Below are positions 269 to 35,588 of a stretch of DNA of 64,000 nt, piece by piece. A program made the translations under genes and the position numbers. Within the stretch, counting starts at the first letter, position 1, and each line of letters begins with the position of its first letter. Source of the stretch: Planctomycetota bacterium (lineage in GTDB: Bacteria > Planctomycetota > E44-bin39); the NCBI GenBank assembly GCA_004376375.1, contig SOJX01000009.1, positions 17,570 through 81,569 on the forward strand, read 5' to 3'. The notes below the pieces were generated by a model. The model worked only from the letters and a program-made list of their open reading frames with translations. It did not search any database and was not told where the DNA came from.

Positions 269-3200
269 ATGACCTTCATCAACGAAAACACTGTCGAGCA
301 GGCGACGCTGGATTATTTCCGAGCGCTCGGTTACGAAATCCTGTACGGGCCTGATATCGGACCGGGCGAACTGCACGCGGAACGGAACGATTGGGGCGAG
401 GTCGTCCTTGCCGGACGTTTGCGGTCCGCGCTTGAGCGTATCAACCCGGACATACCAGCCGATGCAATCGAGGACGCTATACGGAAGCTGCTTCGTACTG
501 AAAGCCCAAGCCTGTATGAGAACAACCACGCATTCCACAAGTTCCTGACCAATGGCGTGCCGGTCGAGTTCCACGCGGACGGCAGAATCAAGCACGATGA
601 TGTCAAGCTGGTAGATTTCAAGGATACTGGTAACAACGACTGGCTGGCCGTCAACCAGTTTACTGTCATCGAGGACAAGAGGAACCGCCGCCCCGATGTG
701 GTGGTATTTGTGAACGGTCTGCCGCTTGCCGTAATCGAACTCAAGAACCCGGCCGACGAGGAAGCCACGATAGAAAAGGCATACAACCAGCTTCAGACAT
801 ACAAAAACGACATACCGGGCCTCTTCCACTTCAACGAATGCCTTATTCTATCCGATGGCATGGAAGCCAGAGCGGGAACATTGACCTCCAACTGGGAATG
901 GTTTATGCCGTGGCGGACCGTCGAGGGCGACGACGTAGCGCCGAAAGGCTCGGTCGAGCTTTCCGTGCTGATAAACGGCATGTTCGAGAAGAGCCGCTTC
1001 CTCGACCTTGTGTGCAACTTCAACGTGTTCGAGGTGGATGGCTCCAGCATTGTCAAGAAAATGGCGGGCTATCACCAGTACCACGCCGTCAATAAGGCTA
1101 TCGAATGCACGGTAAAGGCGTCGTCGCCGAAAGGTGATAAACGTATAGGCGTTGTATGGCATACACAGGGGAGCGGCAAAAGCCTGTCAATGGCGTTCTA
1201 CGCGGGCAAGATTATCCAGCATCCCGCAATGGAGAACCCGACGCTGGTAGTAATAACGGACAGGAACGACCTCGACGAGCAATTACACGGTACGTTCTGC
1301 GACTGCCACGAACTGCTGAGACAAGAGCCGGTGCAGGCGGAATCACGCGACCATGTACGCGAGCTTCTGAAAGTCGCCTCCGGTGGCGTCGTATTCACTA
1401 CGGCGCAGAAATTCTTCCCGGATGAGAAAGGCGACCCGCACCCGCTATTGTCCGACAGGCGGAATATTGTTGTCATCGCGGACGAAGCGCACCGCAGCCA
1501 GTACGGTTTCATAAAGGGTTTTGCAAAGCATATCCGGGAAGCGTTACCGAACGCCTCGTTTATCGGCTTCACGGGAACACCGATTGAATCCACGGACAGG
1601 AGCACCCCGGCTGTCTTTGGCGATTACATAGACATATACGATATCGAACGCGCGGTACTGGACGGGGCCACGGTCAAGATTTTCTACACGGGACGGCTTG
1701 CACGAATCGAGATTGACGAGGCGGAACGCCCGCATATCGACCCGGACTTCGAGGAAGTGACCGAAAGCGAAGAAGCGGAAAAGAAGGAGAAGCTGAAGTC
1801 CAAATGGTCACAGCTTGAGAAAGTCGTCGGTACGCAGAAGCGTATCAACCTGATTGCGGAAGATATTGTAAATCACTTCGACGACCGCCTGTCCGTCATG
1901 GACGGAAAGGGCATGATTGTCTGCATGAGCCGCCGGATATGCGTTGACTTGTATAATGCGATAATAAAACTGTGCCCGGAGTGGCATGACGGGGACGATA
2001 AGAAGGGTTATATCAAAGTCGTGATAACCGGCTCCGCGTCCGATCCGGCAGACTGGCAGCAACATGTCCGCAATAAGATGCGACGAAAAGCGCTGGCCAA
2101 GCGGTTCAAGGACGAGAAAGACTCGATGAAGCTGGTCATCGTCTGTGACATGTGGCTTACCGGCTTTGACGTGCCGTGCCTCCATACGATGTACGTTGAC
2201 AAACCGATGCGCGGTCATGGGCTAATGCAGGCTATAGCGAGAGTAAACCGCGTATTCAGGGACAAGCCGGGTGGCCTTGTCGTGGATTATATCGGCCTTG
2301 CCGACCAGTTGAAGAAGGCGATGCACGAGTACACCGAGAGCGGCGGCAAGGGTGAAACGACGATTGACCAGGAGCAGGTCGTCGCCGTGCTGCTGGAGAA
2401 ATACGAAATCATCAAGGCCATGTTCCACGGGTTCGACTACTCGGTATACTTCCGCGCAAAGGAAACCGCCCAGATGCAGGTTATGGCGAACGCGATACAG
2501 CACATACTGGAAATTGACGAAGGTAAGAACCGCCTCATATCTGCGGTGACTGATATGTCACATGCGTTTGCGCTTTCCGTTCCGCATGATAAAGCGCTTG
2601 CTATACGGGACGAGGTCGGATTCTTTCAGGCGGTAAAGGCCGCCATAATGAAGCGGCTTGTCACCGGCGGAACGCCGCAGGCAAAACTTGACGCAGCAAT
2701 TCGGCAGATAATATCAAAGGCCGTGGTGTCGGATGAGGTTGTGGATATCTTCGACGCCGTGGGGCTGAAGAAGCCAGACATTTCTATATTGTCCGACGAA
2801 TTCCTTGAGGAAGTAAAACATTTACCGCAGAAGACCCTTGCCGTAGAACTCCTGAACCGGTTGCTGAAGGACGAGGTGAAATCCCGGCGCAGGAAAAACG
2901 TCGTGCAGGCGCGGTCGTTTACCGAGCTTCTGGAAAAGACGATACTGCGCTACCAGAACCGGACGATAGAGACTGCCAAAGTCATCGAGGAGCTTATTGG
3001 TCTTGCAAAGGATATGCGGGAAGCGCACAAACGCGGTGGAAAGCTGGGCCTGAAAGAGGATGAGCTTGCGTTTTACGACGCGCTTGAGGTGAACGACAGC
3101 GCCGTCATGGAACTTGGGGACGATGTGCTGAAAACCATCGCCCGCGAACTTGTACAGACCATCCGCGATAACTGGGCGATTGACTGGACCATGAAGGAAA

Positions 3201-3334
3201 ACGTCCGCGCTAAGATGCGCTCGATGGTGAAACGCTTGCTCCGTAAATACAAATACCCGCCGGACAAGCAGGAGAAAGCGACGCAGACCGTGCTCGAACA
3301 GGCGGAACTCCTATGCAAAGACCTAGCGGCGTAA
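269..3334 (+). CDS. hsdR: Type I restriction enzyme R (restriction/translocase) subunit
   Basis: 1021 aa. N-terminal nuclease motif D-x-ELK ([20 protein letters not shown]). Walker A TQGSGKS and DEAH box [10 protein letters not shown]. Helicase motif VI region QAIARVNR. Long C-terminal helical region typical of HsdR. Confidence 0.9.
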
Positions 3335-3604: not shown

Positions 3605-4792
3605 ATGGACTATGTCAATGGCGTCTTCAAAAAAGAAAGGGACTACATTGAGAATGGGACGACGCTTCTCATCTTTCAGTTAGCGTGTCGGGAGGCACTG
3701 CGCCACGATCTAGTAGGAACGGTCGCATTCAAGCAAGGACTATATAGGTTTGTTCCGGATTGGAAAGACAGAGGAGATAAAGCCTACGAGGCACGCAAGA
3801 ACCGCATACTAGGGCTTTTCCAAGCGTGTTTCGGGAGCGTCGACAAGAACGTGGTAAAGCGAGCCGCCAAGATGCTTGCGGATACAATTGGCTACTGCGG
3901 CGGCCACTTTGACGGATGGGCCTTGGCTGAAAGACTCATCAGCCCCAAAGCACTACGGGAATGCCTCGATGCCGTTTTCTCAGAGGAACCGATCTCCGAG
4001 GTAAAGATACTTCTTCGCAAGCATCGCGGAAAGGTAAGAGGATTCACCTTGGCCGGTTTTTCCGAGCTATGTTACCTGTGTCGCGACGACCTGTTTCCTG
4101 TCATCAACAGGCGTGTGACAATCCCGAAGGCATTGCTGAGGCAACTGAAAAGGAAGTGCTTTATCTCCCAAAACAATTATCAGGGCTATCCATACTTAGC
4201 TGAAGTATTGGAAGGATTCCTGGACGAACTCAGATTTCCCAAGGGACGCGACCAGCATAGGTTTGGATATGTTGACCGCTATTTCAGACACAGAGATAAT
4301 GACCGTACCGTAAGGGCATCTGCCAGGAAAGCGTTCTACAAAGAGCTCGCTAAATTCGTTGATAGCCTTCCTGATCGTCCGCCAGCCGTACGTATCGCCA
4401 GAACCATCTGCCCTACTGACCTAGAGATTGAAGGAGGTACAAACCTAGCCACGCATCGTAGGAAAGAGCGAAAATCAGCGAACCGTCAAGCATATCTGAA
4501 CGCCACAAGTAACCCATACCGCTGCAAGATCTGCCACGTTGACCTTGCCGAGGAATATAGCCTAGAAGACGACTACGGCGTGATTGAAGTGCACCACAAG
4601 AGGTTGTTGAAATCTGTTCACAAACCGAATCTTGATGAACTAGTCGGGCTGTGTCCGAATTGCCATGTAATGCTACACAGACACATAGCTGCGTACCTGA
4701 GAAAGAAAGGGCGCAAGGATTTCGCGAGCAAGAAAGAGGCGTTCAAGGTGCACGATGAATTCGTAGGTCACTGTCAGAGGCTATGGCGATGA
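3605..4792 (+). CDS. HNH endonuclease domain protein (unknown N-terminal region, C-terminal HNH)
   Basis: 395 aa. C-terminus CKICHVDL...VIEVHHKRLLKS...CPNCHVMLH matches the CxxC...HH...N...CxxC...H HNH zinc-finger nuclease signature. Confidence 0.7.
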   Translation: MDYVNGVFKKERDYIENGTTLLIFQLACREALRHDLVGTVAFKQGLYRFVPDWKDRGDKAYEARKNRILGLFQACFGSVDKNVVKRAAKMLADTIGYCGGHFDGWALAERLISPKALRECLDAVFSEEPISEVKILLRKHRGKVRGFTLAGFSELCYLCRDDLFPVINRRVTIPKALLRQLKRKCFISQNNYQGYPYLAEVLEGFLDELRFPKGRDQHRFGYVDRYFRHRDNDRTVRASARKAFYKELAKFVDSLPDRPPAVRIARTICPTDLEIEGGTNLATHRRKERKSANRQAYLNATSNPYRCKICHVDLAEEYSLEDDYGVIEVHHKRLLKSVHKPNLDELVGLCPNCHVMLHRHIAAYLRKKGRKDFASKKEAFKVHDEFVGHCQRLWR

Positions 4793-5191: not shown

Positions 5192-7555
5192 ATGATGGGC
5201 GATTTATTCGTGCTTATCATTATCATCGTATTTATTGTTGGTATAGTAAAAATTATACAATTTGTACTGGCATTAAAAGAAAAAGCCAAATCTGTCTTTA
5301 CCAAATCACGACATCGTCACCGTTCAGGAATATCAATCGAATTAGGCTCTGGCAGTACACGGGCCAGATTCAGGAATAGACAAGTCAGTCGCCCAATTAA
5401 GTCCGACATGAGATGGATTGGGCTAAATGACGAAATCACTATTCGAACATACAAGATTAACGACCCGCTTACTTATGTTTCTAAATCAAAACCACCGTCC
5501 TCTCACGAATGGATTTCATATGGCGATTTTGAAGAAGATGAAGCATCGTGCATATATACTTCCCTTAAAGTGGGCAGACCTGTTTATGAACCTCCAGGTG
5601 CACTAGGATACTGGCCCAAATACGCCCAGATTTCAGCGGACCAACGGGCAAACTACCTGAGATGGCTAGCCAATGGCAGAAATGACGAACTTGAAGACAT
5701 CGGTTATGCTTTTATATTCTTCTATGGCCTTGAACGGCGTTTATTGGTTGAGAAAAAAGATTTTAGAATCATTATGGGTGAAGTTGTCAGACTGCTGGAT
5801 CGATATACCCATTCTGGTTCGTTCACCGGCTATTTGGCCAGATTTCTTACCTACGTTGCTGCTAAGTATGGACTTGACAAGATTGATGATCCGCTTTTCT
5901 GGATCATTTTTGAAAAATCTCCTGCGCGACGTACAGAAGAAGGTCTTTCGGTGGCGCTTGCATGGATGCATATACATGGTCATCCATTAAGCACAAGTTG
6001 GGCAATGGATGTTGCCCGCATGGACCCCCGGTCTCCGAGAAGCGTTGTAACAAAACGAATCCCAGGCGAATTTAAGAAACTTTTTGATATCAAGTACAAG
6101 GAAAAATATGGCAAAGGATTAGTATTAAAAGCTTCAAAGATTGAGAGGAAACTTGAATATCATCCGGCAAGTCCTTCCCTTGGGACTCTACATAGCGACT
6201 ACGACGATGAATCCGCTGTAATTCAACCTATTCGCATTCCGAATATTATGGGTATTCAAAGCCAATTTAAGGAGTTGGTAGAAATCTGGACTGAGTGTAT
6301 CGACGAGTTGAAACCTCTTGCTCGTAAAGTCGGCAAGGGGATGGATGTTGATACACGGGAAGCCTTTGAAGCCCTTCCAGATGACCTGAGAAAAGAATTG
6401 GATCACCCCGATCACGACAAATGGGAACACCTTGCTCAGGCTAACATGCGCGAGGATGGTGTGGTCTTATTGAGTGTTTCCGACTTGGCAAAGTTGAAAG
6501 AAATTGGCAAACGGGATCGATTGACCAAGAAGCAAGGTGAAAGTATTGCAGAAACAGCCGAGTACATTGGATATGTAATTGAACCTGATATTAGATTAAC
6601 TAATCGCACATATAAATGGGATGATAAAGTCTGCCTGTTGAGGCCGGATATACCTGATAAAATCCTGGATTGCCCTCGATATCTAGGTTCCGCTATAATA
6701 CTTGAATTGGGAATGGCAATTGCGGCGGCAGATGGCGTGATTGAAGATGAGGAGGTTTCACATATAGTAAGTTTTCTGGAAGGGCGGTTTATGCTGGATA
6801 CCAACGAGGAACAGAGAATAAAGGCGTTGAAAGAAGTACTGGTTGCGTCACCTCCTTCCATGAATGGTGTTGCGAGACGATTGCAGAAGGCACTGAAGCC
6901 GGATCAGCTGGAAAAGGTCGGGACATTCCTTGTTGGTGTCGCAGCTGCTGACGGTATTATTGACAAAAATGAGATAAATATACTTAAGAAAGCTTATAAG
7001 GCGTTAGGCCTAACCAATGACAAGCTGAATGAAGTTCTTGATTCCATTGTTATAGCTCCTGATGCACCTGTGGAGGTTCAGCGCGGCAGGAAACGTGACC
7101 GAAAGGGTGAGCTAATCCCTGCACGGAAGGAGAAAGAAGAATTTATAGAAGTAATATTGGATGAAAACAGGATACGTGAAATTCTTGAGGATACCAGAGA
7201 GGTATCGGATATATTGAGCGCTGTCTTCCAAGAAGAGGATTTTGGATTGCCAGAGGGGCAGGAAAATGCTGCTCAGGAACCGGCTCAATGTTTAGAACCA
7301 GCGACAGATCCTCGTTTTGAGGATCTTGATTCCAGATTCCACTCTTTCCTGTGTGAAGTACTTACGAAGGAAGAGTGGGATAGTGATGAATTCACAAATC
7401 TCGCCCGTTCTTATAATCTTATGCCTTCGGGAGCAATTGAGAAAATCAATGAATGGGCTGAGCAAAAATATGACGATCTTCTAATGGAAGAAAGCGATAA
7501 GATTTATATCAACAAGGATATTCTGCCGGAGCACGAAAATGTCAAACAAAATTAG
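5192..7555 (+). CDS. Membrane-anchored protein with two TerB-like repeats (TerB-N/TerB-C type architecture suspected)
   Basis: 787 aa. N-terminal TM helix LFVLIIIIVFIVGIVKIIQFVLAL. Two internal repeats with the TerB signature A(A)ADG-I-x-E (LGMAIAAADGVIEDEEVSHIV and LVGVAAADGIIDKNEINILKKAY). RBS GGAG 8 nt upstream. GC about 41%, lower than its flanks. Confidence 0.6.
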   Translation: MMGDLFVLIIIIVFIVGIVKIIQFVLALKEKAKSVFTKSRHRHRSGISIELGSGSTRARFRNRQVSRPIKSDMRWIGLNDEITIRTYKINDPLTYVSKSKPPSSHEWISYGDFEEDEASCIYTSLKVGRPVYEPPGALGYWPKYAQISADQRANYLRWLANGRNDELEDIGYAFIFFYGLERRLLVEKKDFRIIMGEVVRLLDRYTHSGSFTGYLARFLTYVAAKYGLDKIDDPLFWIIFEKSPARRTEEGLSVALAWMHIHGHPLSTSWAMDVARMDPRSPRSVVTKRIPGEFKKLFDIKYKEKYGKGLVLKASKIERKLEYHPASPSLGTLHSDYDDESAVIQPIRIPNIMGIQSQFKELVEIWTECIDELKPLARKVGKGMDVDTREAFEALPDDLRKELDHPDHDKWEHLAQANMREDGVVLLSVSDLAKLKEIGKRDRLTKKQGESIAETAEYIGYVIEPDIRLTNRTYKWDDKVCLLRPDIPDKILDCPRYLGSAIILELGMAIAAADGVIEDEEVSHIVSFLEGRFMLDTNEEQRIKALKEVLVASPPSMNGVARRLQKALKPDQLEKVGTFLVGVAAADGIIDKNEINILKKAYKALGLTNDKLNEVLDSIVIAPDAPVEVQRGRKRDRKGELIPARKEKEEFIEVILDENRIREILEDTREVSDILSAVFQEEDFGLPEGQENAAQEPAQCLEPATDPRFEDLDSRFHSFLCEVLTKEEWDSDEFTNLARSYNLMPSGAIEKINEWAEQKYDDLLMEESDKIYINKDILPEHENVKQN

Positions 7556-8861
7556 GCGCAGAGAGCGCACCGCTATTATCCAATCGCTGCAGGCCGGTGT
7601 CGTACCGAGGGTCGGGCTGCAACACATCCAGGTCGGGAGGCTAGAGGAAGTTGAAGCAGTATTGCGCGATCTTGAAAACATAAAGGAAGGCGGAGCTTCT
7701 ATAAGATTTATAATCGGACGTTTTGGATCGGGTAAAAGCTTTTTTCTGAACCTTGCAAGAATCGTTGCCCTTGAGCAGAAATTCGTTGTCGTTCAGGCAG
7801 ATATCACACTTGAGCGCAGACTTCATGCTTCCGATGGCAAAGCCAGGAATCTTTACTCTGAGCTAATGCAGAATATGGCAACCCGCTCTAAACCAGCTGG
7901 AGGAGCACTGGCAAGTGTAATTGAAAGATGGGTTTCAGATATTGATTATTCTGTTAGGGACTCTGGAGGAGATGAAGAAGATGTTTCTGATGCTATTCAT
8001 GAGAAGCTGAAGCCGCTTCAGGAGTATGTCAGTGGCTACGATTTTGCTGAGGTTATCTCAAGATATGTTGAAGGATTCCATAAAAGTGACGATCAACTGG
8101 TAAGTTCCGCGATTCGCTGGCTTAAAGGTGAATATGGGACTAAAACCGAGGCCAGGCAAGATTTGGGTGTCCGATCAGTAATTACGGATAAGAATATCTA
8201 TGATTACTTAAAGCTTATGGGCAGATTTATCCAGCTTGCTGGATATAACGGCCTGCTTGTGAACATTGATGAAATGGGGGTCTTGTCACACAGGCTAAAT
8301 CATTCAACCTCAAGAAATAACAACTACGAAAAGCTACTGGCTATTGTGAATGATTGTCTTCAGGGTAACGTAACAGGCATTGGATTTATTTTTGCCGGGA
8401 CGGATGCTTTCCTTGAAGACAAAAGACGCGGTCTTTACTCCTATGAAGCTCTGGCAACCAGACTTGCCGAAAATACTTTTGCCGTAGATGGATTGAAGGA
8501 TTTCTCCAGCCCCATTATAAGACTTGAAAACCTTTCACCTGAAGACTTATTTGTGCTGCTCTGTAATATTCGAAGTGTTTTTGCATCTGATGATTCCGGG
8601 AAACACATAGTTCCTGATGATGCATTAAAAGCCTTTATGCAGCATTGCTCAAATACTTTGGGAGCGGCTTTTTATAGAACTCCAAGGGACACCGTCAAAT
8701 CATTTGTCGGACTGCTTTCTGTACTTGAGCAGAATCCTGGAGCTGACTGGAGAAACCTTCTCAAAGGAGTAACGATCAAAAGTGATCCGACCCCTGAGTC
8801 CGGGGAAAATACTTGTCCAACCGACGGTGATTCCGACGATTTGGCAAAATTCCAACTGTAA
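7539..8861 (+). CDS. P-loop ATPase, BrxD/DUF2791-like
   Basis: 440 aa. Walker A GRFGSGKS and Walker B LLVNIDEMG. Overlaps the upstream gene by 17 nt. Size and partnership with an Lhr-like helicase resemble BREX BrxD. Confidence 0.6.
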   Translation: MSNKIRRRERTAIIQSLQAGVVPRVGLQHIQVGRLEEVEAVLRDLENIKEGGASIRFIIGRFGSGKSFFLNLARIVALEQKFVVVQADITLERRLHASDGKARNLYSELMQNMATRSKPAGGALASVIERWVSDIDYSVRDSGGDEEDVSDAIHEKLKPLQEYVSGYDFAEVISRYVEGFHKSDDQLVSSAIRWLKGEYGTKTEARQDLGVRSVITDKNIYDYLKLMGRFIQLAGYNGLLVNIDEMGVLSHRLNHSTSRNNNYEKLLAIVNDCLQGNVTGIGFIFAGTDAFLEDKRRGLYSYEALATRLAENTFAVDGLKDFSSPIIRLENLSPEDLFVLLCNIRSVFASDDSGKHIVPDDALKAFMQHCSNTLGAAFYRTPRDTVKSFVGLLSVLEQNPGADWRNLLKGVTIKSDPTPESGENTCPTDGDSDDLAKFQL

Positions 8862-8870
8862 ATCACAATA

Positions 8871-11078
8871 ATGGACCATAACGAGGACATTCCGGCTTTC
8901 GAACTTCTCAATCCTAAGATACAGGAACAGCTCTATAAAATGAGATGGGAGGAGTTGCACCCCATCCAGGTCGATGCGATTAAGGAAGTTATTCTCGGCA
9001 ACAATCACATTGTAATCTCCTCGCGGACGGCAGGAGGAAAAACCGAAGCAGCGTTTCTTCCCATTCTCTCAAAATTAATTGACAGGAAAGAATCGGGAAT
9101 TGGCGCGGTTTATGTCGGTCCGCTTAAGGCATTGATTAACGACCAGTTCATGAGGCTTGAAGAACTTTGCAGAAGAACTGAAATCGCGGTTCATAAATGG
9201 CACGGTGATGTAACGGCATCCAAGAAGCGAGCACTGTTAAAGAATCCGTCGGGAGTCCTTCTCATAACTCCTGAATCTATCGAATCCATTTTTATCAATA
9301 AATCCCAGCACCTTCATAAGTTTTTTTCAAACTTGCCGTATATTGTTATTGATGAATTGCATTCTTTTATCGGAACCGAAAGAGGCGCTCATCTTCAGAG
9401 CCTATTGGCCAGAATAAACCAGGTAAATAAGAAACAGCCAAAACTGATCGGGCTCTCCGCGACTCTCGGTGATGTTGAGTTGGCTGGAAAGTGGATGTGC
9501 AAGCCGGTTGAAGGTTGCGCAATCTCAATTTCCGACGCAAGTGAAACTAAAACAGTTCATTATCTTGTCCAGGGTTATCTCAGGATCAAGGAGAAATTGA
9601 CGAAACTTGGGCACAATGAATATGCGAATCATGAAGGCACGGGAAATGCGGCTGATATGAATCTGACGGAAGATATTATTAAATCTTTCGCCAATCGAAC
9701 ATCACTTATTTTCGGAAACAGTAAGTCTTACCTAGAGGAAAAAGCTGACCTGGTCAACCGGATAATGCAAAGAAGGAAGCTTCCGAATTCCTTTGGAATA
9801 CATCACGGCTCACTCGGCAAGATTCAGAGGGAAGAAACTGAAGAAGAACTCAAGTCGAACAGACCGATCAGCGTTTTTTGCTCAAGTACGCTTGAAATGG
9901 GAATAGATGTCGGTGATGTTTCCATTGTAGGGCAACTCGGGCCTCCCTGGTCCGTGAACTCGCTGATTCAGAGACTTGGCCGGAGCGGTCGCAAAGATGA
10001 TGATCCCCAGGTAATGAGGGTATTTATTGAAGAGCTTGAAGCTAGGGATAGCTCATCGATATTACAACGCCTTCATCGTGGCCTGCTTCAAACGGTCGCA
10101 ATGAGTGAACTCATGCTGCAAAAATGGTGCGAACCTCCAGAAATTGATCGTCTGCACCTGTCAACAATGGTTCATCAGATATTGAGCATCATTGCTGAGA
10201 AAGGAGGCACTTATGCAAACCAGCTGTTCGAATCTCTAATTGCCAGAGGAACTTTTTCCAATGTTGACAAGAAAAGCTACAAATCAGTTTTGAAATCACT
10301 CGGAGAAAAAGACGTTATCGAACAAACACCTGAAAAATTACTAATATTGGGACTAAACGGTGAGAGAATTGTCAGAAACTTTGAATTCTATGCCGCCTTT
10401 AAGACTCCCGAAGAATTTAGTGTAATACACAGAGAAAAGACAATAGGTACAATCGTACCAGACCCTTCATTGGAAATAGGCAGCTACCTCATTCTTGCCG
10501 CCAGACGTTGGCAAGTTACAGACATTATTCCAAAACGGAAACAAGTTTTTGTAATGCCCGCAAAAGGTAAAAAATTGCCAATATTTGGAGGAGGATTAGG
10601 ACCTGACGTGCACCCATTTGTTCGAATGAAGATGTATGATATGTTGTTCGATGATAACGTACCCAGATACCTGAACCAAAAAGCAGCGGAACTCCTATTA
10701 GCTTCAAGAGTTTCCGCCAATGAAGCTATGCTTGACGTCGAACAATTCATAAAAGAAGGCAAAGATACGATCTGGTTCACCTGGACGGGAAGTAGAATAA
10801 ACAGAACATTAATGGCTCTCGGCAGTTATTTTTCTGGAATGAATGTTGATGATGAAGGCATTGCTTTGGTTTTTAAAGGGGTATCAGAAAGCGAAATAAA
10901 GGCAGCATATAAATCGTTTTTGCATCAGCATCCGACTCGATTTGAAATAGCAATGAAGTTTCCTGTTCTTGATTTTGAAAAATTTGACGAACTGCTTTCT
11001 AAAGAACTAACGGCAAAAGCCTTTGCTAAAAACTATCTCAACCTTTCTGGTGCTTTAGAGGTAATCAAGAAACTATAA
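8871..11078 (+). CDS. Lhr-like DEAD/DEAH-box SF2 helicase
   Basis: 735 aa. Q motif LHPIQ, motif I SSRTAGGKTEAAF, motif II VIDELHSF, motif III SATLG, motif VI QRLGRSGRKD. Starts 10 nt after the ATPase gene. Confidence 0.8.
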   Translation: MDHNEDIPAFELLNPKIQEQLYKMRWEELHPIQVDAIKEVILGNNHIVISSRTAGGKTEAAFLPILSKLIDRKESGIGAVYVGPLKALINDQFMRLEELCRRTEIAVHKWHGDVTASKKRALLKNPSGVLLITPESIESIFINKSQHLHKFFSNLPYIVIDELHSFIGTERGAHLQSLLARINQVNKKQPKLIGLSATLGDVELAGKWMCKPVEGCAISISDASETKTVHYLVQGYLRIKEKLTKLGHNEYANHEGTGNAADMNLTEDIIKSFANRTSLIFGNSKSYLEEKADLVNRIMQRRKLPNSFGIHHGSLGKIQREETEEELKSNRPISVFCSSTLEMGIDVGDVSIVGQLGPPWSVNSLIQRLGRSGRKDDDPQVMRVFIEELEARDSSSILQRLHRGLLQTVAMSELMLQKWCEPPEIDRLHLSTMVHQILSIIAEKGGTYANQLFESLIARGTFSNVDKKSYKSVLKSLGEKDVIEQTPEKLLILGLNGERIVRNFEFYAAFKTPEEFSVIHREKTIGTIVPDPSLEIGSYLILAARRWQVTDIIPKRKQVFVMPAKGKKLPIFGGGLGPDVHPFVRMKMYDMLFDDNVPRYLNQKAAELLLASRVSANEAMLDVEQFIKEGKDTIWFTWTGSRINRTLMALGSYFSGMNVDDEGIALVFKGVSESEIKAAYKSFLHQHPTRFEIAMKFPVLDFEKFDELLSKELTAKAFAKNYLNLSGALEVIKKL

Positions 11079-11518: not shown

Positions 11519-12775
11519 CTATGTAGGAAGCAGGAACACCTCGGTGCTTGCTCCCATCGTCGCCACAATCGGAGGACGTTCGTCCTCAATAGACTCTTCA
11601 CTAGGCTTGCTTATGTGAACGTTTAGCAGACGCAACCGTTGATCTGGATGCAGATCAAATCGGAGATTTAAGGTTCGCAACAGAATGGGGCCGCCGGCCT
11701 TCAAGTCTGATGGGGATTGCACCACACCGTCCCAACTGCTGGGTCCGTGTTGACCTGAAAGCTTGATCTGAAGGTCGGCAAACCGACCCTTCGAGGGGTC
11801 TCTGTCTTCGCCCTGGCGGCGGGCATTCCACTGCCAATACTCCTCGCACAGGTGTCGTACGGCGCAGTACTTACAGTTCTCTGCACTTGGTCGCGCCTCA
11901 GGCGGATCAGCCCGGAGATCAGCAAGTGCTGCCGCGGTTCGCTCCTTGAGTTCATCCTCCAGAGAGCGAAGTGCACTGGCCCCTGGGACCGGCACCTCGA
12001 CGTCGCTCTCGTCGTATGAAAGCACGAGTTTGTCTGCAAGTCGGCCCGAGGGGTTCAGATCGCGATCCCGGGCCCAGAGCAGTGCGTACGTCCGAAGTTG
12101 GAACTTGTGCTCCTCCTTCGGAGTCCCAGTCTTGAAGTCTCGGATCTCGCACCAGGTTGGTGAAAGCGTGAGCAAGTCCGCGACACCAAGCCACCCCAAT
12201 TCGGATGCCTGGAGTTCGACCTCTGTATGAGAGCCATGCTGTAGCTCATACCGGAATTCCGCCTCCGGGTGCGTGGTGGGACACCCGGGCCTAGCAACAC
12301 GAGACTCGGGATGAATGCGAGACAAGAACCTCTGAACCCGTGAACGAAGTTCTGGAACTCGGGCAGCAAGCTGATGGCGAATCCCGTCAAGGACTGGAGC
12401 CGCTCGTGGATTTCCGTCGTATGATCGAAGCGCACGTTCCAGGCTACTCCGAATGATTGCCGTATAGCCGCCGAGTTCTCTTAGCGTGCAGATCGCGCTT
12501 TCGTCTACCAACGAGGTGCATCCGCATTCTACAAGAGCCTTCGTGATTTTCTGTAGGGCCAAATGAACGACCGTTCCTTCAAGCGCTGCTGATTGTGGTG
12601 GACGAGGGTACCCGCGGTGTTTCCATACGTCTGGATACACCGCGGTGCTCAGCGCCCACCGTCTCGGACAAGCCTCCAAATCCGAAAGCGTGGAGAAGGA
12701 CATCCACAGCGGTGCTTCGGACCACGCCGATGGGCATGACACGTGCCAAATACTCGTGCTGCTGTTTCCAGACAT
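11519..12775 (-). CDS. Cas4/RecB-family PD-(D/E)xK nuclease with predicted Fe-S cluster
   Basis: 418 aa. RecB-nuclease motifs GVADLL (motif II) and EIRDFKTG (motif III), plus QLRTYALL (QxxxY). N-terminal Cys (EACPRRW) plus C-terminal CKYCAVRHLC (CxxCx5C) gives the four-Cys Cas4 pattern. Starts 5 nt after the upstream helicase gene. Confidence 0.8.
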   Translation of the reverse strand: MSGNSSTSIWHVSCPSAWSEAPLWMSFSTLSDLEACPRRWALSTAVYPDVWKHRGYPRPPQSAALEGTVVHLALQKITKALVECGCTSLVDESAICTLRELGGYTAIIRSSLERALRSYDGNPRAAPVLDGIRHQLAARVPELRSRVQRFLSRIHPESRVARPGCPTTHPEAEFRYELQHGSHTEVELQASELGWLGVADLLTLSPTWCEIRDFKTGTPKEEHKFQLRTYALLWARDRDLNPSGRLADKLVLSYDESDVEVPVPGASALRSLEDELKERTAAALADLRADPPEARPSAENCKYCAVRHLCEEYWQWNARRQGEDRDPSKGRFADLQIKLSGQHGPSSWDGVVQSPSDLKAGGPILLRTLNLRFDLHPDQRLRLLNVHISKPSEESIEDERPPIVATMGASTEVFLLPT

Positions 12776-12780
12776 CGCAC

Positions 12781-15700
12781 CTACCCGATCTGCGAGATAA
12801 GATCGCTCGTTGCCTTCGGCAGGTTTCTCCGTATGACTAATTCGTCACAGAGTAACACTGGGATTGAAAGACAGAACTCTTTGAGGTTTCTGAGTGCATC
12901 GTCAGGAGGATCGTCAGGCGTGAGGGGTCCATAGATGCCGATGATGAATTCGGAGTTGTCGGCTCGCTTCACATAGATGGGAGCGGTTACTGTGCCAAAC
13001 CCAGACAACGTGAGAACCCGATTCCGTTCAATAGTCACTCCTTCAAGGTTCTGCCGACGGAGGTCCTGAAAGAGCAATTCGGTAGACGCGGTAAGCCGCG
13101 CGGAATCCAGGGTGGGATAGGCCCCATGAATTAGGAATCGCAGAAGACTCGCGCCAACGTGGCGATCCAGCAGATCGTGCTCGAACTTGTTTTTGTAACT
13201 CCGCAAGCAACGATAGCAGGAGCGATCACAATTCTCTAGGCAATTTTCGAGAATACGTAGAGCTTCCTCAAAAACCGCTTCGCCCAAGTCACCGACACGG
13301 CGCACGAAACCGGCACCACCTGGGAGCGTGTCGTAGATGTAGATCTCCGCCTCGCGTCCCTCCCGGCCTGCCTCCGTCAGCGCTGGCCGGTATTCGGCCT
13401 GCAGTTCTTGCGCTTCCAGCCCAAGCAGACCGCACCCCGCCTTCGTCAGCGCCTCAGCGACCGTTCTCAACGCCACGTCGGTAGCGAGAAGGCCAGATGC
13501 CAGCATCACGGGCGCTTCGACCCGAAGAGAAATCAGCAGCACATCGGTGATGAAGTCCGTGCCAAGCACGAGGCCTTTGGTCGCCCGACCCCCTGCACAG
13601 TTCGGATCTCGATCATCTGGGTACGGCTTCGGGTGGGCTGCAGCGACGGTTCCCTTCGGTGCCGCCGTAGGCTCGATGCGGCCGCAGCGCGTGCAGTAGG
13701 TGTAGCCTTCCTGACGCGGCCCTCGGTTGGTTACGAGCAGGTGCTGCCGCATGTGGTGGAGACGTATCCTGTCGTTGATATCGCTCCACTCGTCTGGGTC
13801 AGCCGGGGTCGACGCCGTTAGCTTGGCGCGAGTAGCGTAGCTTCGCGCTGGCTGGTCGTCGGGGGTTGTGCCCTCGTCGCGATCCACTGGGTGCGCGAAC
13901 CCGGGTGGACGCATCCAATAGCGCGCCGGACCGAAGGTACCCTCGCTCCCGCACGCCTCGCAGTCACGGGACTCCCCGCGAGTGCCTTCGCCGAGCGGCA
14001 AAGTGCGTGCGTACCTGCAATAATTGCACTCATAATAGAGGCGACGGCGCTGCCACGCGTTGAAACGGTCGTCTTTCATCGGGGAATAGATAGCGCCCGA
14101 TGTCCACAGCTTGCTTGCGATCCACACCTCCTTCCCCGGCGCGTACTGCGACAACGCTACGGGCAGCCCTTGGGACGGCGTGAAACGGAAAGCGGGGCGG
14201 GACCACTTGCTCGCATCGGGGTCGAAGACGTGGAAGGTTGCCACATCGGTCGGAAAGGCATACCGTGGAAGCACTCCCTTGTAGAGGAGACGGTCCAACA
14301 GATTTCCTGACGCAGGATTTCGCCCTGGCCGCTCCTCTCCCACTTCGTCGCTAATCTCCAGGGCCGTTGCCTCCTCACCTTTGGAACTGTCATCAGCCTT
14401 GTCATTCTCGGAGGCCCCTGCATCATCGAGATTTGTTCCTTCCGCGGGCTGGTAGTCGATGGCGGCATCGATTGCCGCCATCGTGTCGTCGACGATTCCA
14501 TCGAGCAGCAAGTCGCGATCCTTTGAAGTGATCTCGGATGGGAGCCACCCAGACACGTCCGCCTTCAGCGCTTCGGCGTTAGACGCAAGCCACTTCGCGA
14601 GGCCCTGCCTGTTCAGAATTGTATCTTCCCTCTTGAAGTCGGACACCGTACCTAACACGGCGAAGAGATGAAGTTGATCTTCCGGAGCGATGTCCGGCAA
14701 TCTCCACTGATGGTAGCGCTGGAGGAGGTACGCCGTGAGGTGGCGACGGATAATATCCAGGTTGTCGAGCGTTAACCTGGGATCAACAACATCTCCGCTG
14801 ATCATTTCATCCGGGTGCGTGAAGTAATGTTCATCATGGCTGTCGGCACTGCCAAACGCGGTGACGGTCGCGACTGCGTTCCCCCGCCGTCCAGCTCGAC
14901 CTGCTCGTTGCTGGTAGTTCGCTCGCGCCGGTGGCATGTTACGTAGCGAAACACCGGTCAATGAGCCAATGTCGATGCCCACTTCCATCGTTGTGGTACA
15001 CGAGAGTACGTCGATAGCCGGGCGATCCTGACCCTTCTCATCGGGACCAAGGTCGATGTCCTGGAACAGCAATTCATGCTCCTCGGCTTTCGAGAAAACC
15101 TCCTCGGCTTGGGCCGCATTGAGTTGAGCAGTATGCTCTGCTGCAATCAAGGCCATCGGAGGCGTCGGCGGGTCCTCCAAAGCGCAAATCGTGCTCGCCC
15201 GGTAATACCCTTTGCGAGCTGCGAATACGGAGTCCGTATCGGGGTCGATTAATATAGCGGAGTCATGTCCGCAGTTCACACAGCGATTGCTGCCAGGGAA
15301 TGGCCGCTGCGTTGTTCGACAGGCCTGACAGTACGCCCAGTCATCGCCAATTAGAAGGGAGAGTTCCCCGCCCTTGAGGCGGCGCTTGTTGGCAGGCATC
15401 GGCTCGGTGAAGAGTTGCAGCAGAGTCGGAAGCCAACTCTTTTCGAAGACCTTCCGGGCGGCCTTCTCGACCAAGCGCCGCTCCATCTTACGGAAACTGC
15501 CTGAACGTGACTTGACTTCATTCAGCCACCAGCCATGGGGCATCCGGCTGAGCCAGAAGCCTGCGCGCTGCCAGCACCGCAGCCATGCGCGGGCAAGCGC
15601 GAGCTTCTGCTCCGTCGTGGTAGCTACATCAGGTACGTCGGGAAGGGCTTGGATCGCGGGCGAGTGTGCAACTCGCTCGACGATTGATGCGAGCGCGAGA

Positions 15701-18339
15701 GACTCCAAGCCGTAAAACCTGTCCGTGAGGCATTTCGTGATGCCGCGAAGCAGTGCCTCGGGCGGTGGCTCATTGCGGACAGTCATGAACAGTTCGAAGA
15801 GCCCGGCGTCAGTACCGAGGGCACCATTTTGGATTTTCTGTTCGACAATCTCTTCGGCGTGAAAGCTCTCGCCGACCTTGAGTTCTGGACGCAGCCTCAC
15901 GCCGAGTTCCTTCGCCGCGATGAGGACCGCCAAGTATAACTCCTCCAGAGAGATGTGTTGGGCGAGGAGAGCAGACTGCTGCAGACGGGCGAATCCAGCG
16001 ACAACCAGAGGGCGGAGGGCGTCCTGTGTAGAGTAGGTCTGCACGTTAGGCGCAAGGCGAGCAGCGGTCTGCCGAGAGTCAGAGAAGATCAGCACCTTCC
16101 GCCCACGAAGCGGTGCGAGCTTTGTCGGCGCGGTCGCGTTGGGAGGCTGAACCTGTAGCTGCCTTGCGATCAGCGCTTGGAAGGGTTGGTCGCCCTTGGT
16201 CTGGTGATCCTGGACGGACGAGCGGCCGAACGCCGCCGACTCATCACAGACAGCGCACGGAATGAACTCCCCACCACGAGTGGCAGACCCCGACGCGTCG
16301 GCGTTTGTGACTGGCGCTCGATTTCGGCGGATGAAAACCTGCCTCACGCGTTCGCCGAGCACCTGAGGGTTTAGACGCCCCGTGACGAGATCATAGTCGG
16401 CGGGCTCCACGTCCGCAATGACGGGCTGCTCTAGCAAAAGGTCCAGCGGTTCGAGTTCATCGAACAGCCCCAATAGCGTGCGAAATGCGCCACCCGCCTC
16501 GGCCCACAGAAAATCCGGCTCGTCCAGATCGTCCGTGTATGCCCGGCCATACGCACTGCCGCAGTTTCGGCAAGTGTAGAATTCCAATACCCGGGCTCCG
16601 CACTCACAGGCATCTCGAGGCTGGCTAAACAGCTTTCCACAGGGCCCACCGCGCTGTTCAGGCTCCAAAGCCGAACAATCCGCATCCATGCAGACCCACA
16701 GGCCTGCGAGTCCGCGGTAAAATGAGTGGACGCGGCATGGTAGGAGTCCAGGTGCTGTCAGGTCCGTGCGCGCGAGGCTGCCCAGCGCGATCAGTGTCGT
16801 CACGGCGCGAGCAGCGGTCGGAGCCTCCACGTCTTTGAAAAGTTTCTCCCCGAGCGTCTCAACCGGCTGCGCCGCCGTCATCGTGATGTTGATCAGGCGC
16901 GCCATTGGCGGGTAGTGTTCCAAAGCCGCGTACAGCGATGGCCCGAGGGTCCACGGTGGCTTCACGCCTCGATACTCCAGGAACACGGCTACCCTCTCAA
17001 GGCGCTCCTGGTCCGACTCGGCAGCGTAGAAGGCGTCCAAATTAACCGCGCACAATGCCTCGGCGTCCTGTCGAGTGCCCACACCCTCGGCTTCTCGGAG
17101 GTATAGTTGGCCTGGCACAGTCTCGAACTCGGCCGTCGCCTTGCCGGTAAGTTGGGCTCCGAAGACAGAGGCGTAAGCTTCGTCCTGAAAGCTCGCGCTG
17201 GTGCAGATCACCTGAAGGCGCTCAGGCGATATACCGAGCCTAGAACGGAGGCGACGGACCAAGAGCGCGACCTCCGCTCCGGCTGCCCCCCGATACAGGT
17301 GCGCCTCGTCGAGCACCAAGAGCAGCCGCTCGTCGGAGTTCGCGCGAAGCCACGCCCGGGTCTTGTCGAAGATCGGGCGCTCGAGCGGCCTCATGAGCAT
17401 GTACTCGAGCATCGAGTAGTTCGTAACCAAGATGTCCGGCGGTGTCTCATGGACTTCATGCCGCGTGAACAGTTCCGGATCGTCCGGTAGTGTCACGCAC
17501 CGCTTGAATTTTCCCGTCTTTCCGTCTCTCCACCTGGAACCCTTCTTCCCGTACCAAGCAAGAAGGTCGGGTTTCGCGGGCCACTTGCCCCGCTTCTTGA
17601 ATTCTTCCACGAGTTTCTCTGCGGCCCTCTGTTCTTCCGACGGGGGACCGGTTGCCTGCTCCAGGTAGCGGACGTAGTAGTGGCCGATGGCGCTGAGCCG
17701 AGTTTGATCCTTCTTTTCGCTCCGCACTCCAGGATATAGTGTGCGGCTCGTATATCGCGCAAATCTGGCGGGGCGACCTGACCACGCCATGAACTTGTGG
17801 ACGATTCGCTGATCTCCAAACAGAAGCCGCAGCCGCCCGAGTTGGTCGTTCACCAGCGCATTCATCGGGTAGAGTACAAGCGCTCGAACTGCTGGCGTGG
17901 ATTTGAACTGCTCGCCTTTTTCGCGCGCTTCCTTGGCCAGCTTGCCCAAGATCGGGAGCAGAAAGCACTCCGTCTTCCCAGAGCCGGTGCCCGTCATCAC
18001 CACGAGGCTACGTCCGTCAACAAGGCACTTCTTCACCGCCGCAGCCTGGTGCTGATAGGGCGGATCGTGGATGAGCTTCGGCAGATCCCCGGAGGACATG
18101 GTCACCGCGCTGAACATCTCCAACACTGAACCTGGGAGCCCGAGGTCCGCGAAGGCCGCGCCGGATCTGTACCGGAGCGTGCTCTCCAAGTAGGGACGCT
18201 GGGAAATGACACCAGGCTGGCTGAGCAATTCCCGACGCTGAGCGACAAGCGTGGGATGGCTCACATGGTACGTCGCTTCGATGTAGTCGCGCAACGCAGC
18301 GTGAAGCTGATCGACGGTCTCTCCTATGGTCAGGGGCAT
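12781..18339 (-). CDS. Giant SF2 DEAH helicase with multiple Zn-ribbons and a C-terminal DUF1998-like Cys cluster (DruE/DrmA-like)
   Basis: 1852 aa. Q motif PYQHQ, motif I MTGTGSGKTE, motif II LVLDEAHLY, motifs V/VI TTTMEVGIDIG...QQRAGRAGRRG. Several CxxC pairs in a roughly 750-aa insert and at the C-terminus (YYECNYC...CEAC, ENCLENCDRSCYRC). Confidence 0.75.
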   Translation of the reverse strand: MPLTIGETVDQLHAALRDYIEATYHVSHPTLVAQRRELLSQPGVISQRPYLESTLRYRSGAAFADLGLPGSVLEMFSAVTMSSGDLPKLIHDPPYQHQAAAVKKCLVDGRSLVVMTGTGSGKTECFLLPILGKLAKEAREKGEQFKSTPAVRALVLYPMNALVNDQLGRLRLLFGDQRIVHKFMAWSGRPARFARYTSRTLYPGVRSEKKDQTRLSAIGHYYVRYLEQATGPPSEEQRAAEKLVEEFKKRGKWPAKPDLLAWYGKKGSRWRDGKTGKFKRCVTLPDDPELFTRHEVHETPPDILVTNYSMLEYMLMRPLERPIFDKTRAWLRANSDERLLLVLDEAHLYRGAAGAEVALLVRRLRSRLGISPERLQVICTSASFQDEAYASVFGAQLTGKATAEFETVPGQLYLREAEGVGTRQDAEALCAVNLDAFYAAESDQERLERVAVFLEYRGVKPPWTLGPSLYAALEHYPPMARLINITMTAAQPVETLGEKLFKDVEAPTAARAVTTLIALGSLARTDLTAPGLLPCRVHSFYRGLAGLWVCMDADCSALEPEQRGGPCGKLFSQPRDACECGARVLEFYTCRNCGSAYGRAYTDDLDEPDFLWAEAGGAFRTLLGLFDELEPLDLLLEQPVIADVEPADYDLVTGRLNPQVLGERVRQVFIRRNRAPVTNADASGSATRGGEFIPCAVCDESAAFGRSSVQDHQTKGDQPFQALIARQLQVQPPNATAPTKLAPLRGRKVLIFSDSRQTAARLAPNVQTYSTQDALRPLVVAGFARLQQSALLAQHISLEELYLAVLIAAKELGVRLRPELKVGESFHAEEIVEQKIQNGALGTDAGLFELFMTVRNEPPPEALLRGITKCLTDRFYGLESLALASIVERVAHSPAIQALPDVPDVATTTEQKLALARAWLRCWQRAGFWLSRMPHGWWLNEVKSRSGSFRKMERRLVEKAARKVFEKSWLPTLLQLFTEPMPANKRRLKGGELSLLIGDDWAYCQACRTTQRPFPGSNRCVNCGHDSAILIDPDTDSVFAARKGYYRASTICALEDPPTPPMALIAAEHTAQLNAAQAEEVFSKAEEHELLFQDIDLGPDEKGQDRPAIDVLSCTTTMEVGIDIGSLTGVSLRNMPPARANYQQRAGRAGRRGNAVATVTAFGSADSHDEHYFTHPDEMISGDVVDPRLTLDNLDIIRRHLTAYLLQRYHQWRLPDIAPEDQLHLFAVLGTVSDFKREDTILNRQGLAKWLASNAEALKADVSGWLPSEITSKDRDLLLDGIVDDTMAAIDAAIDYQPAEGTNLDDAGASENDKADDSSKGEEATALEISDEVGEERPGRNPASGNLLDRLLYKGVLPRYAFPTDVATFHVFDPDASKWSRPAFRFTPSQGLPVALSQYAPGKEVWIASKLWTSGAIYSPMKDDRFNAWQRRRLYYECNYCRYARTLPLGEGTRGESRDCEACGSEGTFGPARYWMRPPGFAHPVDRDEGTTPDDQPARSYATRAKLTASTPADPDEWSDINDRIRLHHMRQHLLVTNRGPRQEGYTYCTRCGRIEPTAAPKGTVAAAHPKPYPDDRDPNCAGGRATKGLVLGTDFITDVLLISLRVEAPVMLASGLLATDVALRTVAEALTKAGCGLLGLEAQELQAEYRPALTEAGREGREAEIYIYDTLPGGAGFVRRVGDLGEAVFEEALRILENCLENCDRSCYRCLRSYKNKFEHDLLDRHVGASLLRFLIHGAYPTLDSARLTASTELLFQDLRRQNLEGVTIERNRVLTLSGFGTVTAPIYVKRADNSEFIIGIYGPLTPDDPPDDALRNLKEFCLSIPVLLCDELVIRRNLPKATSDLISQIG

Positions 18340-18373: not shown

Positions 18374-19459
18374 TCAACTTATTTCCGTGAGCCATGCGTA
18401 TTCCTTAAGGAAGCGGACCTCCTCGTCAATCTCGTTTTCTCTAAGCCTATAGGAGAACAGGCATCCTGAAGACAAGATGGGGACTCCGACAACATTCCAT
18501 TTCCTCCTCACCCACATCGGAAGAGGTGAGAAGAAGTCGACTACCTCCGTGCCATTGGGCCCGGGCCGAACTCTGAAGATCTGGGGAGTTCCTTGCTCAT
18601 AGTCGATGGCTGCCTGTATTCTCCAGGCCTCGTCACATCCTCGCCAGGTATTGCTCTTCAGCGGAAGATCCACAAACCTGATGGGGTTACCGTCCTTGAC
18701 CTTAACATAACACCAGAGATCCGCCCCATAGGCTTGCGCACGACGGCCAACAAACCGCCCGGTATGGGTTGTCGATTCGACCCAGCGACCTCGGTAGTAT
18801 CGAACGGATCGTCCTGGGTCAAGCAGTACCAACCCTGGAACGTCTCCACCTACCGGTGCGGCATCCAGTAAGCGATTCATTCGCCCAAGATACTCGGCGG
18901 CGGCTTCCGCTTTCGGAGCTTTCAACCATGCGCTGCTCGACAGTTCAATCCAGCCCAACTCTCCCAATTGATCTGCGAACTTTGTTCCTGCGTTGGGTGG
19001 CAGTACTCGAATGTGGTTTATATACTCGACACATTCCACGACTTCGTCAGGGAGTAGAGATACGTCGTCGGGCAGGATCCCCAAGATGACAACCGCGCCA
19101 CTTTGACGTCGCACAAAAGCTGGTGGAGCGAGGTACAGGAGGGCTTTGCACCCGCTACTTTCCTCCTGGCTCGTGTCCGTCAGCTCGAGGAGGTCTCCAT
19201 GCCCGACAAGTGCTTCAAGCGTATCCTCGACCGTCCGTTGTAACTCGTCCAGGTCATCGACCAAGCTCCGAAGAGGTTCAACGACCGCATGGATGAGGGT
19301 ACGAGCAGAACACGGGCACAGGAACCCTGCGGCACGCCGGAGGCAACACGAAACTGCTTCCACGCTGCTGAGATCCAAAGCACTAGGATCGAGGCCCAAC
19401 GCCTCAACCGATGCCTGGTGAACCTCCGCTGTCGATAGAGCTTTCATTCCCATGCCCAC
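18374..19459 (-). CDS. hypothetical protein (third gene of the five-gene operon; DruD-like by position and size only)
   Basis: 361-aa ORF. Tight operon spacing: 16-nt overlap upstream and 34-nt gap downstream. No recognisable motif. Confidence 0.5.
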   Translation of the reverse strand: MGMGMKALSTAEVHQASVEALGLDPSALDLSSVEAVSCCLRRAAGFLCPCSARTLIHAVVEPLRSLVDDLDELQRTVEDTLEALVGHGDLLELTDTSQEESSGCKALLYLAPPAFVRRQSGAVVILGILPDDVSLLPDEVVECVEYINHIRVLPPNAGTKFADQLGELGWIELSSSAWLKAPKAEAAAEYLGRMNRLLDAAPVGGDVPGLVLLDPGRSVRYYRGRWVESTTHTGRFVGRRAQAYGADLWCYVKVKDGNPIRFVDLPLKSNTWRGCDEAWRIQAAIDYEQGTPQIFRVRPGPNGTEVVDFFSPLPMWVRRKWNVVGVPILSSGCLFSYRLRENEIDEEVRFLKEYAWLTEIS

Positions 19460-35540: not shown

Positions 35541-35588
35541 GTGTCAACTGTATTGACACATTACGGTCTGTGTCAATGTAGTTTACAC
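35541..35588. promoter_or_regulatory. two tandem palindromic candidate enhancer (UAS) sites GTGTCAA-N5-TTGACAC and GTGTCAA-N5-TTTACAC
   Basis: Perfect 7-bp IR at 35541-35559 and a one-mismatch copy at 35570-35588. Centres 29 bp apart. 100-150 bp upstream of the sigma-54 promoter and directly beside the sigma-54 activator gene. Confidence 0.45.

Follow-up and report, generated by a model that had tools for sequence, protein, structure and literature searches.

The stretch analysed here (the window) comprises 64,000 nucleotides of a Planctomycetota contig, SOJX01000009.1 (GCA_004376375.1), positions 17,570-81,569 of the forward strand, and all coordinates below are those of the window. At its centre of interest is a gene for a Cas4/AddB-like nuclease, which closes a five-gene operon resembling Druantia type I, with the order DruA, X976, DruD, DruE, nuclease. 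Three of the five genes that define Druantia type I are present (DruA, DruD and a DruE of the type I clade) and two, DruB and DruC, are not. The operon genes lie on the same strand and overlap or almost abut one another:

22368-23561, minus strand: DruA (DUF4338); Pfam PF14236, 1.3e-89; PADLOC DruA1, 4.7e-143
19444-22374, minus strand: X976, 976 amino acids, in the slot of canonical DruB and DruC
18374-19459, minus strand: DruD; PADLOC DruD1, 4.8e-121
12781-18339, minus strand: DruE, 1852 amino acids, YprA/MrfA-family superfamily 2 (SF2) helicase; Pfam DEAD, Helicase_C and MZB/DUF1998; PADLOC DruE1, E = 0, 1958 bits, full length
12776-12783, minus strand: junction, with the DruE stop TAG (12781-12783) and the 5-nucleotide spacer to the nuclease ATG
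11519-12775, minus strand: nuclease gene, 418 amino acids, ATG start; Cas4/AddB-like PD-(D/E)XK nuclease with a C-terminal OB-like barrel; fifth operon gene

A sequence-only reading of the stretch had placed the nuclease immediately after a giant helicase, and its start codon does lie 5 nucleotides behind the TAG stop of the 1852-amino-acid reading frame, a spacing from which the two genes are predicted to be translationally coupled. The same reading called the large protein a DUF1998 helicase; this holds for its MZB/DUF1998 domains, but its identity as DruE and the Druantia operon as a whole had been missed. Relatives of DruE in the PDB include 9tu7, 9wae and 6znp, and NCBIfam holds no hidden Markov model that recognises DruA, DruD or DruE. 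The G+C content of the Druantia cassette is 54-60% and that of the nuclease gene 57.5%, as compared with 42-44% for the genes of the Shango defence system that lies next to it. Scans for terminators and promoters around the nuclease gene returned counts at chance level only.

Within the nuclease gene, the following features can be assigned:

11801-12775, minus strand: nuclease module, residues 1-325; Pfam PF12705 over residues 25-311
12668-12670, minus strand: C36 codon, N-terminal cysteine
12563-12565, minus strand: H71 codon, motif I
12176-12178, minus strand: D200 codon, motif II, in GVADLL
12131-12139, minus strand: D213-x-K215, motif III, in EIRDFKTG
12086-12100, minus strand: Q226-x3-Y230, motif IV, in QLRTYALL
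11846-11875, minus strand: C301-x2-C304-x5-C310, C-terminal cysteine trio
11522-11788, minus strand: C-terminal OB/HIN-200-like beta-barrel, residues ~330-418; AlphaFold2 strands at 331-416, Foldseek matches to HIN-200 and OB domains

The Pfam family PDDEXK_1 (PF12705) matches the protein with 69.9 bits (cut-off 22, E = 4.2e-19), and this match, together with the motif set, is far above chance. A search of a large protein database gave 470 relatives at E <= 1e-3, typically of ~417 amino acids and aligning end to end, while a profile run against 1.84 billion cluster representatives gave 1359 matches, 647 of them at E <= 1e-30. In a set of 95 full-length homologues drawn from genomic loci, H71, D200, K215, Q226, Y230 and all four cysteines (C36, C301, C304 and C310) are identical in every sequence, and position 213 is always D or E. 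The RecB motifs and the pattern of one N-terminal and three C-terminal cysteines that had been pointed out from the letters alone are thus present, and H71 of motif I, which had not been listed, completes them. By profile, motifs and fold, the nuclease belongs to the RecB-like branch of the PD-(D/E)XK superfamily. With its catalytic and cysteine residues kept, it is apparently intact, and the four cysteines probably form an iron-sulfur ‘staple’.

Automatic gene calling can obscure this pattern. On a public contig that matches the window region (L136), the nuclease (P0001) is called at 1210-2253, corresponding to 11519-12562 of the window, so that the protein starts at residue 72 and has 347 amino acids. 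This short call drops the invariant C36 and creates a false gap of 218 nucleotides behind DruE; truncated calls of this kind could mask the four-cysteine pattern in databases.

An AlphaFold2 model of the nuclease (mean predicted local distance difference test score 85.8, predicted template modelling score 0.81) was compared with the PDB by Foldseek. Matches were found to Dna2, ACE1, Cas4, Exo5, MGME1, AdnA and AddB, with a probability of 1.00 for the first six. The top match was Dna2 (5ean, E = 3e-7), and ACE1 was among the best at 2.5e-6; AdnA and AddB were matched at 4e-4 (6ppr_A) and 8e-4 (3u44_B), and the Cas4 structures matched were 8d3l, 4ic1, 7mi4 and 4r5q. Among viral proteins, the model matches phage exonucleases of the RecB/Cas4 family. 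The nuclease sequence profile had no match among PDB sequences, and only the fold comparison found these relatives. Two elements are added to the nuclease core in the model, a helical insertion at residues ~84-175 and the C-terminal barrel, in which D334, R382 and E412 are invariant among the homologues; together they account for the protein being about twice the size of Cas4. The family module also exists outside Druantia: a protein of 467 amino acids (P0220; L137 4644-6047 and L138 2133-3536) fuses an SNase domain (PF00565) to the C-terminal two-thirds of the nuclease family, OB barrel included, in a non-Druantia context with a helix-turn-helix protein, UDG/SocA, a radical SAM protein and an Mrr-like nuclease nearby.

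The partner protein carries a nuclease-like domain of its own:

12784-13107, minus strand: C-terminal restriction-endonuclease-like domain of DruE, residues ~1745-1852, from AlphaFold2, Foldseek and column conservation

In an AlphaFold2 model of the last 450 residues of DruE (mean local score 83.6), an MrfA-like DUF1998 module (6znp, 2.7e-6) is followed by a small domain of alpha-beta-beta-beta-alpha-beta topology, similar in fold to DUF559/Vsr-like, VRR-NUC and R2 restriction-like endonucleases, though the Foldseek matches of this domain (3hrl, 4qbn and the R2 restriction-like endonuclease) are weak. Across 32 DruE homologues, beta-2 holds an invariant A-P-I at the site of the catalytic Asp of PD-(D/E)xK enzymes, and beta-3 is variable, without a conserved (D/E)xK. 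We predict that the domain has no activity. DruE of types I and II has been described as carrying an inactivated Vsr-like domain at its C-terminus (Bell et al., PMC12458937), and the invariant A-P-I and variable beta-3 agree with that description, short of proof.

If the nuclease and DruE work as a pair, the two genes should stay together across genomes. In a sample anchored on the nuclease, with one genome per species (49 loci from Acidobacteriota, Actinomycetota, Chloroflexota, Planctomycetota, Nitrospirota, Desulfobacterota, Pseudomonadota, Bacteroidota and others), a DruE sequence lies directly upstream in 42 loci, in 3 of which DruE is truncated. Four further loci hold a truncated or orphan nuclease copy with no DruE upstream, and in the last 3 the contig has no upstream DNA. 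The decayed loci are L001-L003 (truncated DruE) and L012, L014, L027 and L043 (orphan truncated nuclease copies). A second sample was picked by the DruE C-terminus, independently of the nuclease, the DruD alignment being too divergent to seed a metagenome scan. It comprises 80 metagenome loci (66 non-redundant), which are the best 80 of >563 matches and are biased toward relatives of the window. Of the 66, 57 carry the nuclease, 3-4 lineages lack it or keep no more than a 40-codon remnant, and in 5-6 the contig ends before the site, so that the nuclease is present in ~93% of the DruE-anchored variant loci. Overall, adjacency to DruE is conserved in >100 loci from many phyla, and the gap between DruE stop and nuclease start is mostly -4 to +28 nucleotides.

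The remaining genes of the operon differ in how firmly they are attached. X976 and DruD homologues precede DruE in all 68 nuclease-bearing loci with enough upstream DNA, while the DruA-like gene varies in place: in 36 loci it is upstream and in the same orientation, in 25 downstream and inverted, and in 9 downstream without inversion. Since DruA moves while X976, DruD, DruE and the nuclease remain side by side throughout, this four-gene block is the invariant unit. The DruA-like gene often matches through its C-terminal half only (L001-L131). Pairwise nuclease identities correlate strongly with those of the DruE C-terminus (Mantel r = 0.83, reached by 0 of 2000 permutations), from which the two proteins can be said, on sequence evidence, to share an evolutionary history and to be co-inherited. 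The pairing of nuclease and helicase proposed by the sequence-only reading finds strong support in this co-evolution, by the conserved adjacency, predicted translational coupling and shared G+C content, and by the lack of conserved catalytic residues in the nuclease-like domain of DruE.

We compared the operon with five annotated loci of canonical Druantia type I, among them those of E. coli, Ralstonia (pUW163a) and P. putida (pKF715A); 63 of 5426 complete E. coli genomes match a DruE probe, and one of these loci was inspected. The canonical order is druA-druB-druC-druD-druE, and the window keeps DruA, a middle gene, DruD and DruE in that order. Identity to the canonical proteins is 32% over the full length of DruE and 45-47% for DruA, whereas the window DruD is undetectable against canonical DruD by BLAST and was recognised by the PADLOC DruD1 models. 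Downstream of canonical druE there is a 93-amino-acid reading frame, a 367-amino-acid protein or nothing. The 367-amino-acid protein, which follows Ralstonia DruE, has no PADLOC or Pfam match and no nuclease signature, and is not a member of the nuclease family.

The most marked difference is in the middle of the operon, where the single X976 replaces DruB and DruC, with the nuclease as an added fifth gene. X976 had no match to the PADLOC DruB and DruC models even at E <= 10, although these give 674-902 bits for canonical DruB and DruC. That X976 could be a fused DruB-DruC was ruled out by comparison with DruB and DruC of E. coli, Pseudomonas and Ralstonia, for which BLASTP gave nothing and hhalign a probability of <1%. 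Searches of Pfam, PADLOC and NCBIfam with X976 gave no matches, and those of PDB sequences only two at chance level. Its N-terminal ~240 residues are very conserved. X976 stands for an uncharacterised protein family by which this variant is defined, and the window system is a deeply divergent sister form of type I, set apart by its middle gene and its extra nuclease.

A four-gene form of the variant, with DruA, X976, DruD and DruE and no nuclease, is found on plasmid pNWAT01 of Nitrosococcus watsonii. The 122-amino-acid gene behind its DruE does not belong to the nuclease family and has no PADLOC match. A tblastn search of plasmids with the nuclease and a blastn search of complete E. coli genomes with a homologous locus from Enterobacteriaceae gave no matches, so the variant is absent from those plasmid and E. 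coli collections.

Several known systems resemble the pair in part. The nuclease domains of AddB and AdnA share with the window nuclease the PD-(D/E)XK core and the arrangement of one N-terminal and three C-terminal cysteines, but they are fused to a large superfamily 1 (SF1) helicase-like scaffold, whereas the window nuclease is a separate protein with an OB barrel. The motors differ as well, being SF1 UvrD-like in AddAB and AdnAB and SF2 of the YprA family here. We know of no Chi-like control for the window system. Dna2 offers a likeness as an iron-sulfur PD-(D/E)XK nuclease that acts on single-stranded DNA next to a helicase, and its nuclease is accompanied by OB and barrel domains; it is, however, a eukaryotic single-chain nuclease-helicase with an SF1B motor, and its relationship to the window nuclease is undetectable by sequence. 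ACE1 (PDB 9IAB/9IAC) is a Cas4-family endonuclease for single-stranded DNA whose gene lies beside that of the central protein of an innate immune system, with which it forms a complex (PMC12094033). Its partner is an Argonaute rather than a helicase, it has ~278 amino acids and no OB barrel, and it trims guide DNAs.

Closest in design are DISARM DrmC, Dpd, BRIGADE, TALON and type III DruE, which combine a YprA helicase with a nuclease that is either fused to it or encoded by the next gene (PMC12458937). The nucleases listed for these YprA systems are PLD, NERD, Vsr or other PD-(D/E)xK enzymes; a Cas4/AddB-type iron-sulfur enzyme with an OB barrel is not among them, and for type I only the dead Vsr is given (PMC12458937). 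The best PADLOC match of the nuclease is to a family called DruK (PDLC00059; 44.6 bits, 2.5e-12), a weak and partial match of residues 182-337 to model positions 113-259 of 326; the second DruK model, PDLC00060, gave a weak 22.2 bits. The homologues score 31-51 bits on DruK, similar to their own Cas4 matches. Both models are described as ‘PD-(D/E)XK nuclease superfamily’, and the name indicates that the PADLOC curators had tied a PD-(D/E)XK nuclease to Druantia. DruK is not described in the PADLOC paper, its supplements or the papers that our full-text search listed, and our literature search found no paper that combines Druantia with Cas4. The type of nuclease and the principle of a YprA helicase with a downstream nuclease are thus already known, and the helicase-plus-nuclease logic will not surprise specialists. 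What appears to be undescribed is a widespread variant of Druantia type I that pairs X976, in place of DruB and DruC, with a near-constant nuclease of the Cas4/AddB type carrying an OB barrel.

How the nuclease acts can be proposed from its relatives. In enzymes of the Cas4/AddB class, a single DNA strand is threaded through a narrow channel, and duplex DNA is not cut; in AdnA and AddB the four cysteines hold an Fe4S4 ‘staple’, and the strand cut is the 5′ strand leaving the helicase partner (PMC12094033). Among YprA-family defence helicases, the nuclease is either a C-terminal part of the helicase or the product of the gene that follows (PMC12458937). For type III Druantia, DruE has been reported to translocate 3′ to 5′ on substrates with single-stranded overhangs (10.64898/2026.05.13.724313, 10.64898/2026.05.12.722862). 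One of these preprints describes DNA degradation by type III DruE through its fused nuclease (10.64898/2026.05.13.724313), and the other reports that the E. coli type III system has no active nuclease domain (10.64898/2026.05.12.722862). Since the nuclease belongs to a class that threads single strands and helicases of the DruE type run 3′ to 5′, we infer that it would cut a single strand produced by DruE.

We lean, with moderate confidence, towards a model in which the nuclease supplies in trans the cutting that DruE lacks. DruE would unwind phage DNA while moving 3′ to 5′, and the nuclease would dock on or near it and cut the single-stranded DNA that it makes, the likeliest target being the displaced 5′-ended strand, as for AddB and AdnA beside AddA and AdnB. 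Cutting would turn unwinding into destruction of the invading DNA, and the OB barrel would either hold single-stranded DNA or mediate the docking to DruE. Processive degradation of invading DNA, as put forward by the sequence-only reading, is what the pair would then carry out. A more far-reaching version is less probable. In it, X976, DruD, DruE and the nuclease would form a distinct, widespread and previously undescribed Druantia subtype in which X976 and the nuclease take over whatever DruB and DruC do in canonical type I, and a DruE with a dead nuclease domain would recruit a separate AddB/Dna2-like iron-sulfur nuclease through the OB barrel, giving an AddAB-like shredder built on an SF2 motor.

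A number of observations weigh against assigning the effector step to the nuclease. Inspection of five canonical DruABCDE loci, from E. coli, Ralstonia and Pseudomonas, revealed no Cas4-like nuclease gene, and canonical type I defends strongly (10.1101/2024.04.14.589459), so that type I-like immunity needs no such nuclease in principle. Within the variant, the nuclease is gone while the other genes look intact on the Nitrosococcus plasmid and in L054, L102 and L110-L112, and L059 (6789-6908) and L060 (1907-2026) keep only the 40-codon remnant; L050 is also among the independent losses in otherwise similar operons. The effector activity could instead sit in X976. In addition, the polarity of type I DruE and the identity of the cut strand are assumed, and the predicted inactivity of the DruE C-terminal domain is deduced from its absent conserved acidic and lysine residues. 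Given the canonical systems without the nuclease, the few per cent of variant loci that lost it and the example of ACE1, which only boosts its partner, the system may use the nuclease as a coupled accessory and not depend on it as its effector.

One alternative places the nuclease ahead of the helicase. As a licensing or end-processing enzyme, it would trim phage DNA ends or forks (e.g. 5′ to 3′) into a single-stranded tail on which DruE loads, similar to DruH of type III, reported to be an exonuclease whose processing recruits and activates DruE (preprint 10.64898/2026.05.13.724313). DruE is reported to need a duplex with a single-stranded overhang (preprint 10.64898/2026.05.12.722862), an OB barrel would suit the recognition of ends or of single-stranded DNA, and the linkage between nuclease and DruE fits such a role equally well. 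However, loss of a licensing enzyme should inactivate the system, yet the nuclease-less operons look otherwise intact, and canonical type I has no counterpart. The position of the gene downstream of the helicase is also that of the effector nucleases in related YprA systems (PMC12458937). We regard licensing as unlikely, though it merits consideration.

The nuclease could also be a dispensable booster. The DruA, X976, DruD and DruE core would then give immunity on its own, for instance if phage DNA were unwound or stalled or host nucleases were called in, and the nuclease would only enhance clearance or widen the range of phages. ACE1, among the closest structural matches, boosts interference even though its Argonaute partner works alone (PMC12094033), and the repeated loss of the nuclease in scattered lineages and its absence from canonical type I point the same way. 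Against this, retention in ~93% of loci, strict co-inheritance across many phyla and perfect catalytic conservation speak for strong selection, and DruE apparently has no nuclease of its own. A purely auxiliary role has, in our view, the same modest chance of being correct as licensing, and cutting coupled to DruE unwinding is the reading that we retain.

The neighbourhood of the operon contains further defence genes, and the window region is a mosaic defence island:

5192-11078, plus strand: complete Shango system, with SngA (TerB_N/TerB/TerB_C, 5.2e-67), SngB (BrxD-like ATPase, 2.6e-169) and SngC (helicase, 4.1e-231)
269-3334, plus strand: HsdR, type I restriction R subunit, with HSDR_N, SWI2_SNF2 and T1RH-like_C, at the window edge

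The sngC gene converges on the nuclease gene at a distance of ~440 nucleotides, and this proximity, along with the SNase-fusion relative in a non-Druantia context, could be cited for the nuclease being a housekeeping repair enzyme or a part of Shango that merely stands beside DruE here. Such a chance association is very improbable, since the gene lies on the strand opposite to Shango and differs from it in G+C content, and since both the DruE adjacency in >100 loci and the Mantel correlation link it to the helicase.

Still less credible is a solo CRISPR-type Cas4 that trims prespacers or makes fragments for adaptation elsewhere in the genome, for which the one-plus-three cysteine pattern and weak matches to PF01930 (19.9 bits), TIGR00372 (30.9 bits) and PADLOC Cas4 (~5e-8) could be cited, as the scores fall under the curated cut-offs (22.7 and 65 bits), two repeat scans detected no CRISPR repeat-spacer array in the 64-kb window, the neighbouring reading frames scanned gave no match to cas families (cas1 and cas2 included), a helical insert and an OB barrel bring the protein to double the size of a Cas4, and its neighbour is DruE at every intact locus that could be examined. 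The earlier suggestion of DNA-fragment production accordingly finds no support, and the lack of an array that accompanied it is confirmed. Both of these explanations are effectively excluded, the former by synteny and the Mantel result, the latter by scores and the absence of an array.

Other reading frames in the window were also annotated. A 395-amino-acid frame after HsdR (3605-4792) had no match in our family searches. Divergent from druA, a frame of 324 amino acids (23758-24732, plus strand) has a G+C content of 55.7%, like the cassette, contains a 46-nucleotide direct repeat (24364-24514) and gave no family match; it may be part of the same mobile module. Further along, a 1777-amino-acid protein (35588-40921, minus strand) combines a Ser/Thr kinase, an AAA_16 ATPase, TPR repeats, GAF and a sigma-54 activator domain. 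It adjoins an 832-amino-acid Ig-domain/transglutaminase-like protein (32530-35028), with a degenerate tandem repeat of 6-36 nucleotides at 34790-34919. The window contains no tRNA genes.

Type I Druantia gave the broadest protection of 33 defence systems against 263 sewage phages in one study. The present analysis adds a large sister lineage, with hundreds of clusters in many phyla, in which the DruA/DruD/DruE core almost always comes with an intact, co-evolving nuclease, a pattern suggesting that what the system ultimately does is degrade DNA in step with its unwinding by DruE. For annotation, the lineage exposes a gap in current defence resources, as X976 has no model and the nuclease only a weak one. 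DruE and the 418-amino-acid nuclease form a pair tractable for biochemical and structural studies, for which the natural four-gene operons without the nuclease provide controls. The variant extends the recurring recruitment of Cas4-family nucleases outside CRISPR, as seen for ACE1 with Argonaute, and if the wider reading of an AddAB-like shredder is true, it would supply type I Druantia with its first concrete effector step.

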